From assembly GCA_036398155.1 (NCBI GenBank), contig DASWHO010000423.1, positions 3,003-67,002 of the forward strand: a stretch of 64,000 nucleotides of DNA. Reading direction: 5' to 3'. The position numbers and the translations under genes are program-made. Every line of letters begins with the position of its first letter. The first letter of the stretch is position 1. The notes beneath the pieces are model-generated. The model made no database searches. It worked only from the letters and a program-made list of their open reading frames with translations, and was not told the DNA's origin. Source of the stretch: Acidobacteriota bacterium (GTDB lineage Bacteria; Acidobacteriota; DASWHO01). Below are positions 2,877 to 33,171 of this stretch, in pieces.

Positions 2877-5846
2877 ATGAAGACCGAAGCCGAGCCCGAG
2901 CGCGAGCTTTCGTTGGGCAGCCGCTTCCGGGGCTTTCAGGACCTGATGCGCTATCGGGTCCAGGACATCCTGCTGGTTTCCAACCTCTACGATTCGTTCA
3001 TCCTGTCGGAGGACGGCCATTTGAGCGAGCTGATCCTCGACGAGGTGTTGAACCTCAATCTGCGGCACACGCCCGGTCTCACCCACGTGACCAGCGGCGC
3101 CGAGGCCCTCAAGCTGGCCCGCGAGCAGAAGCGCCACAACCTGATCATCAGCTCGATCCACATCGGCGATATGGATCCGCTGGAGCTGGCCCGCGCCGTC
3201 AAGCAGGAAAGCCTCGGCATTCCGGTGGTGCTGCTGGCCTACGACAATCGCGAGCTGACCGACTTCGTCGGCCGCAATCCGGTCTCGGACTTCGATCGGA
3301 TCTTCCTGTGGCAGGGCGACGCGCGGATCCTGCTGGCGATCACGAAATACGTCGAGGATCGGCTCAATGTCGCGCACGATACCGGCATCGTCGGGGTCCA
3401 GGCGATCCTGGTGATCGAGGACAACATCCGCTTCTACTCCTCGTTTCTGCCGATGATCTATTCCGAAGTGATGAACCACGCCCATCAGTTGATGCCGGAG
3501 GGGATCAATCTGTCGCACAAGCTGATGCGGCTGCGGGCCCGGCCCAAGATCCTGCTCTGCGGCAGCTTCGAAGAGGCTTGGGACTACTTCGACCGCTATC
3601 AGGCGAACATCCTCGGGGTTATCTCCGACATCGAGTTTCCCAAGCGCGGTGAAGTGGATCGCCAGGCCGGGCTCGAGTTCGCGCAGAAGGTGCGCGAGCG
3701 CCAGCCCGATGTCCCGATCCTGCTGCAGTCGAGCCGGCCCGAGAACCAGCGGCTCGCCCACGCCGCCGGGGCCACCTTCCTGCTCAAGGGCTCCCCGGTG
3801 CTGCTGCAGCAGCTGCGCCAGTTCATGCTCGACAACTTCGGCTTCGGCGACTTCGTGTTCCGCCGCGCCGACGGCAGCGAGGTCGACCGCGCCCACGACT
3901 TGAAGAGCCTGGAAGAGAAGCTCTACAGCGTGCCGCCCGAGTGCCTGGCCTATCACGGCGAGCGCAACCACTTCTCCAACTGGCTCAAGGCCCGCACCGA
4001 GTTCGCCCTGGCCCACAAGCTGCGGCCGCGCAAGGTGGCCGACTTCGGCACGCTCGAGCATCTGCGCCGCGACCTGATCCGCTCGATCCACCAGTACCGC
4101 CGCGAGCGCCAGCGCGGCAGCGTCGCCGATTTCAACAGCCGCAGCTTCGACGCCTCCAACCTCACCTTGGCGCGCCTCGGCGGCGGCTCGATCGGCGGCA
4201 AGGCGCGCGGTCTGGCGTTCGCCAACATGCTGCTCGGCACCTACCACGTGGGCGAGCGCTTCCCGGAGGTCGAAATCTCGGTGCCGCCGTCGGTGGTGGT
4301 GGGCACCGACGTCTTCGACCGCTTCCTGGAGCAGAACGAGCTCAGCGATTTCGCCATCAACGAGACCGACGATCGCGAGATCCTGGCCCGCTTTCTCACC
4401 GCGCCGTTTCCCGAGGACGCGGCCTGGGACCTGGCCGCGTTCGTGGAACAGGTCAAGCATCCGCTGGCGGTGCGCTCTTCCAGCCTGCTGGAGGACTCGC
4501 AGTATCAGCCGCTCGCCGGGGTCTACGAGACCTACATGCTGCCCAACAACCATCCCGATCCGCGGATGCGCCGCCAGCAGCTGATCAACGCCATCAAGCG
4601 GATCTACGCCTCGACCTTCTCGAGCTCGGCCAAAGCGTTCCTGCGCTCGACCCCGTATCGGCTCGAAGAAGAAAAGATGGCGGTGATCCTGCAAAAGATG
4701 GTCGGCGCGGTCCACCAGGACCGCTTCTACCCCGAATTCGCGGGCGTGGCGCGGTCGTTCAATTTCTACCCCACGCCGCCGATGAACGGCAGCGACGGGA
4801 TTGTCGCGGTCGCGCTCGGGCTCGGCGAGACCGTCGCCAAGGGCGGCGTGTGCGTGCGCTTCTGCCCCAAGTATCCGCGCCACCTGGTGCAGTTCTCCTC
4901 GGTTCAAGACGTGCTGCAGAACTCGCAGCGCGAGTTCTACGCCCTGGTGCTGAGCGAGGCCGACGGCGCCGACCCGTCCGAGCGCTTGCAGCTCAGCCGC
5001 TTCGATCTGAGCACCGCCGAGGCGGACGGTACGATCGGGCCGGTCGGCTCGACCTACTCGCCCGAAAACGACGCGGTCTACGACGGGCTGGCGCGCGCCG
5101 GCGTGCCGGTGGTCAGCTTCGCCCCGGTGCTCAAGCAGCGCCTGTTTCCGCTGGCCGAAATCCTCGATCTGCTGCTCGAGATCGGTGAACAGGGAACCAG
5201 CGCGGCGGTGGAGATCGAGTTCGCGGTCAATCTCTCCACCCCTTCCGGATTCCCGCAGGAGTTCGGGTTCCTCCAGATGCGCCCGCTGTCGCGCGCGCCG
5301 GAGGTCTCCGACCTCGATTGGGGCCAGCTTGATCGGTCCCAACTGATCTGCAGCAGCTCGAGCGTGCTCGGCAACGGAGCGCTGGAGGAGCTGCGGGACC
5401 TGTTGGTGGTGGACTTCCACCGCTTCGAGCGCTCCCGCAGCCTGCAGGTCGCCGGAGAGGTGGCGCGCTTCAACGCCGAGCTCAGCGCGGCCGGCACGCC
5501 CTACATCCTGATCGGGGTCGGCCGCTGGGGCTCGATCGATCCGCTGCTCGGCATTCCGGTCACCTGGGATCAGATCTCCGGGGCGCGGGTGATCGTCGAG
5601 TCCGGCTTCCGAGACTTTGTAGTCACGCCGTCGCAAGGCACTCACTTCTTCCAGAACCTGACCTCTTGCAACGTGGGGTACTTCACGGTCAATCCCGAGA
5701 GCGGCCAAGGCTTCGTCGACTGGGACTGGCTGGCGGCCCAACCGGCGCGCCAGGAGCGCGAGTTTGTTCGCTTGCTGCATTTCGACGCGCCGCTGGCGGT
5801 CCGAATGAACGGCAAGGCCAACCAAGGCGTGATTCTCAAGCCTTGA
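2877..5846 (+). CDS. Multi-domain signalling protein: degenerate receiver-like domain + canonical response-regulator receiver domain + PEP/pyruvate-binding (PPDK_N / PEP-synthase-like) nucleotide-binding domain
   Basis: Receiver motifs (ILVIEDN, ISDIEFP, LLQSS, FLLKGS) followed by an ARLGGGSIGGKARGLAF PEP-utilising-enzyme N-domain signature. The ATG sits 70 nt after the upstream stop. Confidence 0.65.
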   Translation: MKTEAEPERELSLGSRFRGFQDLMRYRVQDILLVSNLYDSFILSEDGHLSELILDEVLNLNLRHTPGLTHVTSGAEALKLAREQKRHNLIISSIHIGDMDPLELARAVKQESLGIPVVLLAYDNRELTDFVGRNPVSDFDRIFLWQGDARILLAITKYVEDRLNVAHDTGIVGVQAILVIEDNIRFYSSFLPMIYSEVMNHAHQLMPEGINLSHKLMRLRARPKILLCGSFEEAWDYFDRYQANILGVISDIEFPKRGEVDRQAGLEFAQKVRERQPDVPILLQSSRPENQRLAHAAGATFLLKGSPVLLQQLRQFMLDNFGFGDFVFRRADGSEVDRAHDLKSLEEKLYSVPPECLAYHGERNHFSNWLKARTEFALAHKLRPRKVADFGTLEHLRRDLIRSIHQYRRERQRGSVADFNSRSFDASNLTLARLGGGSIGGKARGLAFANMLLGTYHVGERFPEVEISVPPSVVVGTDVFDRFLEQNELSDFAINETDDREILARFLTAPFPEDAAWDLAAFVEQVKHPLAVRSSSLLEDSQYQPLAGVYETYMLPNNHPDPRMRRQQLINAIKRIYASTFSSSAKAFLRSTPYRLEEEKMAVILQKMVGAVHQDRFYPEFAGVARSFNFYPTPPMNGSDGIVAVALGLGETVAKGGVCVRFCPKYPRHLVQFSSVQDVLQNSQREFYALVLSEADGADPSERLQLSRFDLSTAEADGTIGPVGSTYSPENDAVYDGLARAGVPVVSFAPVLKQRLFPLAEILDLLLEIGEQGTSAAVEIEFAVNLSTPSGFPQEFGFLQMRPLSRAPEVSDLDWGQLDRSQLICSSSSVLGNGALEELRDLLVVDFHRFERSRSLQVAGEVARFNAELSAAGTPYILIGVGRWGSIDPLLGIPVTWDQISGARVIVESGFRDFVVTPSQGTHFFQNLTSCNVGYFTVNPESGQGFVDWDWLAAQPARQEREFVRLLHFDAPLAVRMNGKANQGVILKP

Positions 5847-19463: not shown

Positions 19464-21782
19464 ATGCTGGGGGCTCCCGAGCCGGTGAAAAAGATCGGCA
19501 AATACGAGGTTCAGCGCGAGCTCGGTCGCGGCGCCATGGCGGTGGTCTATGAGGCGATCGACACCGCGATCGAGCGCACCGTCGCGATCAAGGTCATCGC
19601 CGAAGGCCTGCTGCAGGGCGAGGAGGCGCGGCGCCGCTTTTACCAAGAGGCGCGCAGCGCCGGCCGGCTGTCGCATGAGAACATCCTGGTCATCTACGAC
19701 CTCGGCGAAGACGGCGGCCACCCGTTCATCGCCATGGAGCACCTGCGCGGCACCGATCTCAGGCGCCAGCTCGACCGCGACGGTCCGCCGAGCCTCCAAC
19801 GCACGCTCGATATCGCCGCCCAGATCGGGCGCGGACTCGAATACGCCCATCAGAACGGCGTCATCCATCGCGACATCAAGCCCTCCAACATCTGTCTGAC
19901 CCAGAGCGGCCGGGTCAAAATCATGGATTTCGGCATCGCCAAGCTGGTGTCGGCCGAAATGACTCGCACCGGACAGACCTTGGGCACCCCGTACTACATG
20001 GCGCCCGAACAGGTTCAAGGCGCCAAGATCGACGGCCGAGCCGACATCTTCGCCTTCGGCGTGGTGCTGTATGAGCTGCTGACCGGCGTGCGTCCGTTCG
20101 AGGGCAGCGACATGGCCAGCGTGCTCTACAAGGTCGTATTCAAGCCGCCGCCGCCGCTGCCGGAAGCACTGCCGGCCGCGCTCAAGGCCGTCGTCGAGCG
20201 CTGCCTGGCCAAGGATCCGGAGCAGCGCTACCCGGACTTTTCCGCGGTGCTGGTCGATCTCGAGCGTCTGGGCAGGGAGATCGCCGCCAACGAGGAGAGC
20301 CAGAAGACCCGCGTGGGGCTCGACCGAACCGTGGCGCGCACCCCGGCGGCCGCGCCTCCCGCCGCCACCCAGCGGCTTGCGCGCGGCGCTGAAACTCCGC
20401 CCCCGGCGGCGCCGCCATCGCTCGCCCCGGCGGCCGCCGCGCCGCTCGAGCCGGCCGCGGAGCGAGCCGAACCGATCGAGCTCGGCCCGCCGGACCGCCA
20501 GAGCCGCACCCGCACCGCCCTGCTGATCGCCGGCGCCGCCGGCATACTGGTGGTCGCGGCCGTTGCCGGTCTGCTGCTCGGTCGCGGCGAGGCTCCGCAG
20601 CGCTCGGCCGATTCGAATCCGGGTCCGACCGGCGCGGCTTCGACTCCGCCCGCGGTCGTTCCGGAGCCGGTTGAAGCCGGCCCAGCCCCCGATGGGGCCG
20701 GCGCCGCGACGGATTCACAGGCTGCGCCCGAAGCCGGGCCGACCTCACCGCCGGCGCAACCAGCCGCTGGCCCGTCGCAACCAACCACGGTCCCGACACC
20801 GAAATCGAAAAGCCCGCCGCCCAACCCACCGCGCGAGACCGCCGCGCCGTCCCCCTCCGCCATGCTGGTCCGGCAAGTCGAAGAGCAGGCGGCGGCGTTC
20901 CGGCGCGAGGTCGACCCGGAGCTGGCCGAGCGCACCGCGCCGGAGGACTTCGGCGCCGCCGCCGATCTCGAGCGGCAGCTCTTGGAACGCGCCCGCCGCG
21001 GCGATGCCGCGGTGCTCGGCGAGCTCCCCAGGCTCGGACAACGCTTCAACCGGGTTCAGGCGCGGGCGCTTTTGAGCCGGCTTCACGACCAAGTGCTGGA
21101 GGTCAAACAAGACGCCGCCAAGGCCGGTGCGCCCGGCCGCGCCAGCGCGCAATGGAGCGCCGCCGAAAGGCTGCTGCAGCAAGCCGGCGAACTGCGCTCG
21201 AACGGCAACTTGCGGGCCGCCGGGGCGGCGCTGCTCCAAGCCGAGCCGCTGTACCGCGAAGCGGCCGCGGAGGCGCGCGCCGCCGCGGCCGCGGAAGCGC
21301 ACGCCCGGATCTTGGCCAGCGCCCAAGAGGCCCTCGGCCGAGGCGATCCGGACGCGGCGCTGGCGGCGCTGAAAACGCTGCCGGAGGCGGAGCTCAAGCG
21401 GCCCAAGACCGCCGAGCTGCTGGCCCAGATCGAGCGGCTGCGGCGCGCGGCCGCGCCGACCACGGCGGCCAAAGAGACCGCTCCGCCCGCTCCGGCCTCC
21501 GAGCCCGCGCCGCGGGCGGTGGCGCCCGAGCCGGACGGCGCGATCCCGGTCAGCATCCGGCTGGCCAACGTCGTCGGCGTGCGCCGGGTGACGCTCTTTT
21601 TCGGCTCGCTCGGGACCGGCGTGCGCCCCAACCGGCGGATCATGAAGTCGGTCGGCGACGCGACCTACAGGACCGAGCTCGATCCCAAGGACATCGGCTC
21701 GGATGGGATCAGCTACGAGATCCAGGTCCAAACCGTCAACGGGTCGTACATCGCGGACCGCCGCGAAATCCGCCCCCGTTAA
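19464..21782 (+). CDS. Ser/Thr protein kinase with long Pro/Ala-rich low-complexity linker, a helical (TPR-like) region and a C-terminal domain of unknown function
   Basis: Hanks kinase subdomains (GRGAMAVVYEA..AIK; HRDIKPSN; DFGIAK; GTPYYMAPE). Single TM-like segment (ALLIAGAAGILVVAAVAGLLL) after the kinase domain. Confidence 0.75.
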   Translation: MLGAPEPVKKIGKYEVQRELGRGAMAVVYEAIDTAIERTVAIKVIAEGLLQGEEARRRFYQEARSAGRLSHENILVIYDLGEDGGHPFIAMEHLRGTDLRRQLDRDGPPSLQRTLDIAAQIGRGLEYAHQNGVIHRDIKPSNICLTQSGRVKIMDFGIAKLVSAEMTRTGQTLGTPYYMAPEQVQGAKIDGRADIFAFGVVLYELLTGVRPFEGSDMASVLYKVVFKPPPPLPEALPAALKAVVERCLAKDPEQRYPDFSAVLVDLERLGREIAANEESQKTRVGLDRTVARTPAAAPPAATQRLARGAETPPPAAPPSLAPAAAAPLEPAAERAEPIELGPPDRQSRTRTALLIAGAAGILVVAAVAGLLLGRGEAPQRSADSNPGPTGAASTPPAVVPEPVEAGPAPDGAGAATDSQAAPEAGPTSPPAQPAAGPSQPTTVPTPKSKSPPPNPPRETAAPSPSAMLVRQVEEQAAAFRREVDPELAERTAPEDFGAAADLERQLLERARRGDAAVLGELPRLGQRFNRVQARALLSRLHDQVLEVKQDAAKAGAPGRASAQWSAAERLLQQAGELRSNGNLRAAGAALLQAEPLYREAAAEARAAAAAEAHARILASAQEALGRGDPDAALAALKTLPEAELKRPKTAELLAQIERLRRAAAPTTAAKETAPPAPASEPAPRAVAPEPDGAIPVSIRLANVVGVRRVTLFFGSLGTGVRPNRRIMKSVGDATYRTELDPKDIGSDGISYEIQVQTVNGSYIADRREIRPR

Positions 21783-22310
21783 CCCGGCGGCGGATCTGCC
21801 GCCATCTGCTTCGTTGCGCTTGGTCGGGCTCCTCCAGCGTACGTTTCAGTACGCTTCCGTCGCCCTCCCAGCGCGCGCCTCGCATCTGACGGCAGCTCCA
21901 CCGCCCACCATGCCGTGCTGTGGTGCTGGCGTGGGCTTTGTGCCCGTTCGGCGACTTCGCTTCGCTCGTCTCGCCCTGGTCCGCGCGCGCAGCGCTGCAG
22001 CTCGTCATTCCGGTGCAAGCGGCATCCAAAGCCCAGGCTGACGTAGATCCGCCGGCATGCAGTTGCCAAATGACGTCGCGTGCCGTACCGCAGAAGGGCG
22101 GCGGAAGGCCGCAGGATGGAGACGAGCGAAGCGAGGTCGACCCGAACGTGCACAGCACCCGCCCCAGCACCAGTGCACGGGGCAGAGGGCGGTGGAGAGG
22201 GTGCCGGATGCGAGGCGGGCGAAAGGAGGCCGACGGAAGCGTACTGAAAGGTACGCTGGAGGAGGCCGACTGAGCCCAACGAAGCAGACGGCGCCCTATC
22301 CGCCGCCGGG
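21783..22310. repeat. 528-bp quasi-palindrome formed by two convergent copies of the post-stop repeat (sense to STK at left, sense to rplQ at right) around a degenerate GTCATTCCGGTGCAAGCGGCATCCA hairpin
   Basis: Left arm 21786-21972 and the reverse complement of right arm 22119-22308 align over ~185 bp. Heads CCCGGCGGCGGATCTGCCGCC / CCCGGCGGCGGATAGGGCGCC each start within 4 nt of a stop codon. Confidence 0.7.
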
Positions 22311-32051: not shown

Positions 32052-32339
32052 CTAGGCCTCGCGCTCCTGCTGGTCGACCACCGGGCTCTTGCGCAGCACG
32101 GTCCGAATCACCCAGCGCTTGCGCGCCGACAGTGGCCGGCTCTCCACAATCCGAACCTGATCGCCGTTGCGAGTCATGTTCTCTTCGTCGTGGACCATGA
32201 AGGTGGCGGTCTGGCGCCGGATCTTGCCGTAGAACGGATGGGTGATCAGGCGCTCGACCGCGACGATGCGGCTCTTGTTCATCTTGTCGCGCACCACCGT
32301 GCCGACTAGGGCGCGCCGATTGCCTCGTGATTTTGCCAT
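32052..32339 (-). CDS. rpsQ: 30S ribosomal protein S17
   Basis: 'LVGTVVRDKMNKSRIVAVERLITHPFYGKIRRQTATFMVHDEEN'. Confidence 0.9.
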   Translation of the reverse strand: MAKSRGNRRALVGTVVRDKMNKSRIVAVERLITHPFYGKIRRQTATFMVHDEENMTRNGDQVRIVESRPLSARKRWVIRTVLRKSPVVDQQEREA

Positions 32340-32350
32340 CGCCGATAACC

Positions 32351-32566
32351 TCAGGCCTCCGCGGCCTCACGCTTGATCTGGAGCTCGCGCTCCCGCAAGA
32401 CGGTCTTGATGCGCGCCACGCTCACCCGCAAGCGGCGGATCGACTGCACGCTCTCGGCCTGCCCGGCGGCGAGCTGGAAGCGCTGCTTGAACAGCTGGTC
32501 CGCCAGCTCTTCGAGCCGCACTTTGAGCTCCTCGTCGCCCAGCTCGCGGATTTCACGGATCTTCAT
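32351..32566 (-). CDS. rpmC: 50S ribosomal protein L29
   Basis: 'MKIREIRELGDEELKVRLEELADQLFKQRFQLAAGQ'. Confidence 0.85.
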   Translation of the reverse strand: MKIREIRELGDEELKVRLEELADQLFKQRFQLAAGQAESVQSIRRLRVSVARIKTVLRERELQIKREAAEA

Positions 32567-32592
32567 GGCCGTCTACGCCTCGCGCCGCCGGT

Positions 32593-32750
32593 GGCCAGTA
32601 ACACCCAAATCGGTAGCGGATCGCGCCGTCATCGAGGGCGGAGGCAAGGCGCGCCGACGCAGCCATAGCAAGCCGCTATGGCGAGGAGGCGCAACGCCGC
32701 ATCCGCCCTTGAGGGCCAGCGAGCCGCAACCGATTTGGGTGTTACGGGCC
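32593..32750. repeat. 158-bp imperfect palindrome (long-hairpin element) filling the abnormal 185-bp rplP-rpmC spacer
   Basis: Outer arms GGCCAGTAACACCCAAATCGGT (32593-32614) and ACCGATTTGGGTGTTACGGGCC (32729-32750) are 21/22 complementary. Central hairpin GCCATAGC-AAGCC-GCTATGGC is at 32662-32682. Inner arms are partly complementary. Confidence 0.75.
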
Positions 32751-32751
32751 A

Positions 32752-33171
32752 CTAGGCGGCCACCTCGCCGCGGGCCACGAACCGGGTCTGGAGCGGCAGT
32801 TTGTGGGCCGCGCGGCGCAGCGCCTCTTTCGCGGTGGCGCGATCGACCCCTTCCATCTCGAACAGCACCTTGCCGGGTCGAACCACCGCCACCCAATACT
32901 CGGGCGCGCCCTTGCCCTTGCCCATTCGGGTTTCGGCCGGCTTTTTGGTGCACGGCTTATCGGGAAACAGCCGCACCCAGATCTTCCCGCCGCGCTTGAT
33001 GAAGCGGCTCATCGCGATCCGGCTGGCTTCGATCTGCCGGTCGGTGATCCAGCCCGGCTCGGTGGCCTTGAGGCCGTAGTCGCCGAAGCTCACCTTGTCG
33101 CCGCGCCAGGCCTTGCCGCGGCGCCGGCCGCGCTGCACCTTGCGGTGCTTCACTTTGCTGGGCATCAACAT
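32752..33171 (-). CDS. rplP: 50S ribosomal protein L16
   Basis: '[60 protein letters not shown]'. Confidence 0.9.

Follow-up and report, generated by a model that had tools for sequence, protein, structure and literature searches.

A 162-bp palindromic insert, probably a MITE-like element, between rplP and rpmC in the S10 operon of an uncultured Acidobacteriota bacterium

The genes for ribosomal proteins L16 (rplP) and L29 (rpmC) are neighbors in the S10 operon of the Acidobacteriota bacterium studied here. In the analysed 64-kb stretch of its DNA (hereafter the window, 66% GC) they lie on the minus strand and are separated by a gap of 185 bp (32567–32751). The other spacers of the operon, from rplB to rplR, measure −1 to 49 nt in the gene table of the identical locus on contig L001, which makes this gap an outlier. 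L29 is among the annotated proteins of a public Acidobacteriota MAG. The preliminary description of this DNA gave the same gap and left the strand of the operon unstated. Listed in the direction of transcription, the features of the locus are:

32752–33171, minus strand: rplP (ribosomal protein L16), 139 residues, from the ORF list, with Pfam Ribosomal_L16 found on the identical gene in L001
32754–32752, minus strand: TAG stop codon of rplP
32591–32752, minus strand: inserted palindromic element, 162 bp, GTGGCCC...GGCCAC, delimited by its inverted repeats, its folding and the absence of an insert at this site in relatives L008–L014
32719–32752, minus strand: terminal inverted repeat on the mRNA-5′ side, GTGGCCCGTAACACCCAAATCGGTTGCGGCTCGC, preceded by TA (32753–32754) within CTAG
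32632–32712, minus strand: inner, more diverged part of the palindrome, with arms 32632–32645 and 32699–32712 and including the apical hairpin
32591–32624, plus strand: terminal inverted repeat on the mRNA-3′ side, GTGGCCAGTAACACCCAAATCGGTAGCGGATCGC as read on the plus strand, flanked by the dinucleotide CG (32589–32590) and not by TA
32567–32590, minus strand: retained ancestral spacer, 24 nt, which aligns with the 23–24-nt spacer of relative L008
32351–32566, minus strand: rpmC (ribosomal protein L29), 71 residues, from the ORF list, with Pfam Ribosomal_L29

The first base of the element is the G of the rplP stop codon, and the outermost pair of the palindrome uses that G. The outer arms (32591–32624 and 32719–32752) are 34 nt long and 91% complementary. 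Each contains one copy of a perfect 17-nt core, GTAACACCCAAATCGGT, that occurs nowhere else in the window even with three mismatches allowed (chance expectation 0.01). The inner arms are 14 nt long and 86% complementary, and the tip of the structure is an apical hairpin (32662–32682) of sequence GCCATAGC-AAGCC-GCTATGGC with a 5-nt loop. The palindromy runs through the whole length of the insert, with an identity between the arms of ~75% over 178 nt. Most of this had been recognized in the preliminary description, which reported the palindrome, the partial complementarity of the inner arms and, exactly as found here, the central hairpin with its AAGCC loop. Its length of 158 bp has to be corrected to 160–162 bp, and its outer arms, given as 22 nt with 21 of 22 positions complementary, are 34 nt long.

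Folded as mRNA, the 185-nt spacer reaches −116.7 kcal/mol, compared with −84.4 ± 4.2 kcal/mol for dinucleotide shuffles (z = −7.75), and none of the 200 shuffles folds as well. The opposite strand folds at −121.7 kcal/mol (z = −9.3). In the 162-nt element alone, 66 pairs are predicted (45 GC, 18 AU and 3 GU), and the longest uninterrupted helices have 17, 11 and 9 bp. The predicted outer stem is formed by 6 and 17 bp with one mismatch between them and is followed by further short helices. The fold is the long bulged hairpin foreseen earlier, its 66 pairs being close to the estimated 70–80 bp. The centroid structure lacks the outer helix.

The flanks of the element display a complementarity of their own. 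The last bases of rplP (UGGCCGCCUA, 32753–32762) can pair with the bases that directly precede the rpmC AUG (UAGACGGCCA, 32566–32575) at nine of ten positions, and this pairing would extend the hairpin outward. Such a helix is part of the minimum-free-energy fold of a 271-nt context, the centroid keeps only part of it, and the complementarity is missing in the spacer of the relative.

The only internal open reading frame of the element is a 37-residue frame with no ribosome-binding site, and none of the open frames finds a match at E ≤ 10 among 5.8 billion proteins (a weak negative), in keeping with the earlier statement that no coding capacity is evident. The element contains no sigma-70-like promoter, and neither strand of 32567–32751 contains a terminator-like site: the stem is followed by CCGGCGGCG, with no U-tract. 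At the Rfam gathering threshold, tRNAs are the only hits in the whole window. Deletion of the element in silico changes the predicted unpaired probability of the rpmC initiation region only from 0.48 to 0.50. Several other kinds of palindromic or hairpin-forming sequence were considered and rejected. The R′/R″ consensus of integron attC sites is not matched and there is no integron context; palindrome elements of the IS200/IS605 type have no long terminal inverted repeats; a retron or CRISPR lacks its associated genes or repeats here; and a peptide made by stop-codon read-through has no homologues.

Palindromes are error-prone in assembly, and the first question is whether this one is real. 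Contigs from other samples, found by look-up of the exact L29 and L16 proteins, show that the element is present in three other assemblies (ENA, JGI and Logan), some of which break inside it. The ENA contig (L001, ERZ27256875) carries the complete 185-bp spacer and differs from the window at six positions in 6,216 nt (99.90% identity). In JGI 3300033407, contigs L029 and L002 stop inside the palindrome from opposite sides and overlap across its center, and Logan contig L003 begins precisely at the apical stem. All copies at the rplP–rpmC locus are 98–100% identical. Three short-read contig ends (the starts of L002 and L003 and the end of L029) thus fall into window positions 32650–32690, and the last ~40 nt of L029 are garbled. 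These three breaks, in two other assemblies, and the garbled end are what could be expected of a chimeric or fold-back contig. Against such an artefact, two full-length assemblies from different sources agree at all but 3 nt of the element, the broken JGI contigs overlap across the center, and the coding context is colinear on either side. We consider an artefact hardly credible, and the mis-assembly contemplated in the preliminary description can be set aside, since assemblies of other samples carry the element. What the contig ends do document is that the element breaks assemblies inside a marker-gene operon.

The same spacer is short in relatives, and not of the long, non-palindromic kind that would have refuted the preliminary description:

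Relatives with L29 77% identical (six contigs, including L008): rplP–rpmC spacer of 23 nt
Relative with L29 76% identical (L014): rplP–rpmC spacer of 20 nt
Relative with L29 57% identical (L039): rplP–rpmC spacer of 4 nt
Relative with L29 58% identical: rplP and rpmC overlap by 4 nt

Contig L008 reads GCCGCC-TAG-GGCGCGGCGAGG...ATG, and the window reads GCCGCC-TA-[GTGGCCC...GGCCAC]-CGGCGGCGCGAGG...ATG. The 24 nt that follow the palindrome, which include the rpmC ribosome-binding site (a GAGG Shine–Dalgarno sequence 11 nt before the ATG), align with the spacer of this relative and therefore represent the ancestral spacer. Judged from these alignments, the element is a lineage-specific insertion, and a recent one. 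The element sits in the CTAG of which the rplP stop codon is a part, and its first G re-creates the TAG. TA flanks the element on the rplP side only, CG is found on the rpmC side, and there is no intact target duplication. TA and CTAG are both scarce in the window, where CTAG occurs 39 times (200 expected) and TA 752 times (1,829 expected). Stop codons of ribosomal protein genes are among the few CTAG sites, e.g. at 32052 and 32752.

A second member of the family was found by scanning the terminal-repeat pattern (19 specified bases) through 185,579 genomes and 241 million metagenome records. The scan gave 12 matches, four in genomes and eight in metagenome records. In 11 of them, the similarity is limited to the pattern or extends a base or two beyond it, which is about the chance expectation. 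The twelfth, in metagenome contig L020, shares CTAGTGGCaCGTAACACCCAAATCGGTAGCGG with the window in an unrelated context. Here, the mRNA-5′ repeat together with the preceding CTA (window 32753–32755) is matched at 30 of 32 positions, and the identity is 84% over 44 nt. The second terminal repeat of L020 lies 113 bp away in inverted orientation and is degenerate (22 of 32); as a background for the 32-nt repeat scan, none of 181,214 positions reached 20 of 32, the true arms excepted. The L020 element is 113 bp long and has CTAG at each end (cTA...TAg), and its interior is unrelated to that of the window element and not palindromic. Two elements of different length and interior that have ~30-nt repeats and a CTAG/TA junction in common, in unrelated contexts, point to non-autonomous elements served by one transposase.

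On comparison with an NCBI MAG contig (L036), L020 is chimeric or recombinant at 2400/2401. The two are identical over the first 2400 positions and unrelated from there on, and the join falls inside a called 189-residue ORF. The first 2.4 kb correspond to this actinobacterium-like contig, for which Asanoa sp. (92%) is the nearest relative with a name. The element-bearing part is absent there, so we make no claim that the family crosses phyla.

A search for other copies had been proposed in the preliminary description, and the count stands at one copy in ~74 kb of the genome (the 64-kb window and 10 kb beyond its end), with L020 as the one relative. The window holds no further copy detectable with the 17-mer at three mismatches, by low-stringency blastn or by the 32-nt terminal-repeat scan, and neither the 10-kb extension nor any of the related loci retrieved contains one. 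Outside the locus, the family numbers one shorter member in the 241 million metagenome records and none in the 185,579 genomes; the genome itself is evidently outside the scanned collections, because JGI contig L002 was not matched. Three scans of viral contigs gave nothing real, and no significant blastn match turned up in plasmids, phages or E. coli genomes. Plasmids, phages and viral contigs likewise yielded neither a transposase nor a complete insertion sequence that has the terminal repeats of the element. One Microvirga plasmid matches at 24/25 nt (E = 0.5), which was put down to chance, there being no terminal-repeat partner, CTAG or transposase nearby.

A palindrome can also arise in place and never have been mobile, as a local inverted duplication made by template switching or replication fold-back. 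The palindromy of the whole insert, its single copy and the missing target duplication in the window are all compatible with such an origin. On the other hand, the arms show no resemblance to the ancestral spacer or to nearby sequence in relatives, and the 30/32-nt match in L020, which has an inverted partner of its own and is flanked by CTAG, lies in an unrelated context. A local duplication is, in our judgment, decidedly improbable.

The gap probably holds a rare, low-copy, non-autonomous MITE-like transposable element of 162 bp that targets TA/CTAG sites, was inserted and is co-transcribed with the operon, presumably with nearly neutral effect. The insert is shorter than ~600 bp, is non-coding, ends in terminal inverted repeats and has an empty counterpart site in relatives, which are among the features of a MITE. 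Bacterial MITEs are described as stem-loops of 100–200 bp with TA at their termini, which are co-transcribed and affect mRNA (PMC2229807). In its general appearance, the element looks like an ordinary small transposon remnant and not like a new regulatory device.

From the structure, the empty sites and the second family member, all of which are observed directly, we infer the following course of transposition, co-transcription and tolerance. A DDE-type transposase encoded elsewhere would have recognized the ~30-nt terminal inverted repeats and inserted the element at the TA within the CTAG of the rplP stop codon. As TA and CTAG are rare in the window, stop codons would be among the few targets available to a transposase of this preference. 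The terminal G of the element would then have re-created the TAG, and the 24-nt ancestral spacer with the rpmC ribosome-binding site would have survived downstream. Since there is neither a terminator nor a promoter, the element is presumably transcribed by read-through as a segment of the S10-operon mRNA, in which it would fold on itself into a closed 66-bp hairpin. The ends of a closed hairpin adjoin, so the rplP stop and the rpmC start would be effectively ~24 nt apart. With the effective distance about the same as before, the insertion would be tolerated and probably nearly neutral. By analogy with known elements, the insert may also have a side effect on how the mRNA is processed or how stable it is, either through RNase III cleavage or through protection from 3′ exonucleases.

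Two types of target duplication come into consideration. Some IS5-group elements duplicate CTAG-like sites (3–4 bp). Elements of the IS630/Tc1-mariner type insert into TA with duplication of the TA (PMC2170065). Compared at the two loci, the TA type and the 3–4-bp CTAG type would fit equally well.

Several observations weigh against reading the insert as a MITE. One copy in ~74 kb and one relative in very large collections are few, and the collections searched yielded no partner transposase or insertion sequence. No target duplication can be seen in the window, and the contig that carries the other member is chimeric or recombinant, with a degenerate right repeat. The whole-length palindromy (~75% between the arms) exceeds what terminal repeats alone require. 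Finally, all three population variants within the element are in unpaired positions.

The last point also speaks in favor of a present function of the RNA. Three of the six differences between L001 and the window are in the element, which makes up ~3% of the compared sequence. These differences (32674, 32671 and 32659) are all unpaired, two of them located in the apical loop and the third in an internal one, and the chance of this is ~0.006 if differences are placed randomly. The pattern could hint at selection for pairing. We give it little weight because the sites are within 15 nt of the center of the palindrome, where the end of L029 is garbled, and may be errors.

By analogy with known systems, the hairpin may now be a cis-acting RNA. 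It could serve as an RNase III site or stability barrier that splits or differentially stabilizes the halves of the S10 transcript, or it could re-tune the translational coupling of rplP and rpmC. An RNase III substrate has to be double-stranded and nearly continuous for about two turns; the predicted outer stem, interrupted by single mismatches only, is long enough for this, with 66 bp paired in total. Correia/NEMIS elements are cleaved by RNase III and ERIC alters mRNA stability (PMC2229807, PMC2649163), which serves as precedent only. Given the long helix and the Correia example, the RNase III processing site suggested in the preliminary description is plausible. The pairing of the sequence before the rpmC ATG with the rplP stop region and the presence of a second giant hairpin right after rplQ in the same genome could be added in support of a function. 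In contrast, the nearest relatives do without the element, the outer helix is missing from the centroid, and the two strands fold about equally well, the antisense one slightly better. The clustering of variants near the center, where assemblies fail, lends itself to an explanation by errors, and three of six differences in 6.2 kb suggest relaxed rather than strong constraint. No Rfam family matches the element at E ≤ 10. An Rfam match and conservation in relatives, by which a ribosomal protein leader or autoregulatory RNA is recognized, are both missing. The autoregulatory structure proposed in the preliminary description is thus unlikely in view of the insert-free relatives, the absent Rfam match and the equally good antisense fold. 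A cis-acting role of any of these kinds we regard as unlikely, and prefer the MITE-like element.

The second palindrome of the window (21783–22310, ~530 bp) fills the convergent gap between the stop codons of a Ser/Thr-kinase-like gene (19464–21782, plus strand) and rplQ, which encodes L17 (22311–22910, minus strand). It consists of 172-nt arms that are 80% complementary and of additional inner arms, and has TA at either extremity. Its fold reaches −401.6 kcal/mol, compared with −260 kcal/mol for shuffles (z = −23). Its sequence is unrelated to the rplP–rpmC element, and it is identical in four other assemblies. In one assembly of the same population (L033), a 24-nt indel is found in a low-complexity, Ala/Pro-rich part of the kinase-like gene (window ~21284).

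Relatives carry hairpin inserts in other spacers of the operon. In L014, the rpmC–rpsQ spacer (816–1105, 290 nt) is made up of ~7 tandem 27-bp units, gcgcgcgaggggctcctcgctctgaat, each with a small hairpin, and is REP-like; a spurious 97-residue ORF was placed there by the gene caller. In L039, three other spacers contain inverted-repeat inserts (958–1044, 1722–1831 and 2902–3090). The rplX–rplE spacer (213 nt) has perfect 27-nt terminal repeats (z = −7.9), the rpmC–rpsQ spacer (152 nt) has 17-nt terminal repeats (z = −4.1), and the rpsC–rplP spacer (122 nt) has inverted repeats of 20–28 nt. Different hairpin elements have thus entered different operon spacers in several lineages, which makes the rplP–rpmC case less exceptional and fits opportunistic insertion into tolerant, highly transcribed spacers. 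One may also speculate that the hairpin inserts in the ribosomal operons of these soil bacteria are recruited RNA elements. The rplP–rpmC hairpin would then be a double-stranded processing or insulation site that uncouples the halves of the S10 operon and keeps the rplP stop and the rpmC start adjacent, and the 530-nt rplQ hairpin and the hairpins of the relatives would be independent solutions. We regard this as a long shot.

If the insert is indeed a MITE, it represents an undescribed and rare family in an uncultured Acidobacteriota lineage from soil. It would also mean that an insertion of 162 bp can be accommodated in the S10 operon, tightly packed and essential as it is. The apparent conditions of tolerance are that the element lands on the TA of a stop codon, restores the stop, brings no terminator and folds on itself. 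In metagenomes, palindromes of this kind break assemblies in marker-gene operons, and they can be used to mark strains or lineages. The element and the other hairpin inserts provide a natural test set for long double-stranded structures in polycistronic mRNAs of ribosomal proteins.

Among known elements, the Correia or NEMIS elements (CREE) of Neisseria are similar in several respects. They are 100–155 bp long and non-coding, have terminal inverted repeats of ~24–26 bp and TA termini, and are often co-transcribed with adjacent genes as a long hairpin (PMC2229807, PMC2649163). They occur in hundreds per genome, as opposed to the one copy in 74 kb and one relative elsewhere found here, and their host belongs to a different phylum. 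Correia elements contain IHF sites and ends that form promoters, whereas the element described here has no promoter motif, and cleavage by RNase III has been demonstrated for Correia elements, compared with a predicted helix for ours. The sequence of the Correia terminal repeats is presumably unrelated to that of our element.

The enterobacterial ERIC or IRU element (127 bp) is likewise an imperfect palindrome over its whole length. It is of similar size, has TA termini, is transcribed and is found between cistrons in operons (PMC2229807). In Yersinia, ERIC influences mRNA stability (PMC2229807). Its terminal repeats comprise 7 contiguous pairs and are much shorter than the ~30-nt repeats of our element, and ERIC is restricted to enterobacteria and vibrios. 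A blastn search (word size 11, E ≤ 0.01) gave no match to the element in 5,426 complete genomes of E. coli, in which ERIC copies are present, and 'ERIC-like' holds as an analogy only. Of the MITE/ERIC-like insert suggested in the preliminary description, the ERIC half is thus left without a sequence match in these genomes, and the MITE-like half agrees with the empty sites, the ~30-nt repeats, the second member in L020 and the lack of coding capacity.

The RUP element of Streptococcus pneumoniae and the MITEs mobilized by IS630/Tc1-mariner elements are also small elements with terminal repeats at TA, comparable to the window insert in CTAG and to the L020 copy flanked by cTA...TAg. RUP is linked to IS630-Spn1 through shared terminal repeats (PMC2229807), whereas no such partner was found for the element described here, whose duplication in the window is not intact. 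REP sequences and BIMEs resemble the element in being hairpin-forming intercistronic repeats that are tolerated inside operons. REPs differ in that they are 20–40 bp long, highly repeated and mobilized by RAYT tyrosine transposases (PMC3733652), in contrast to a 162-bp element with long terminal inverted repeats. The tandem 27-bp hairpin units of L014 look closer to REPs than the 162-bp element does.
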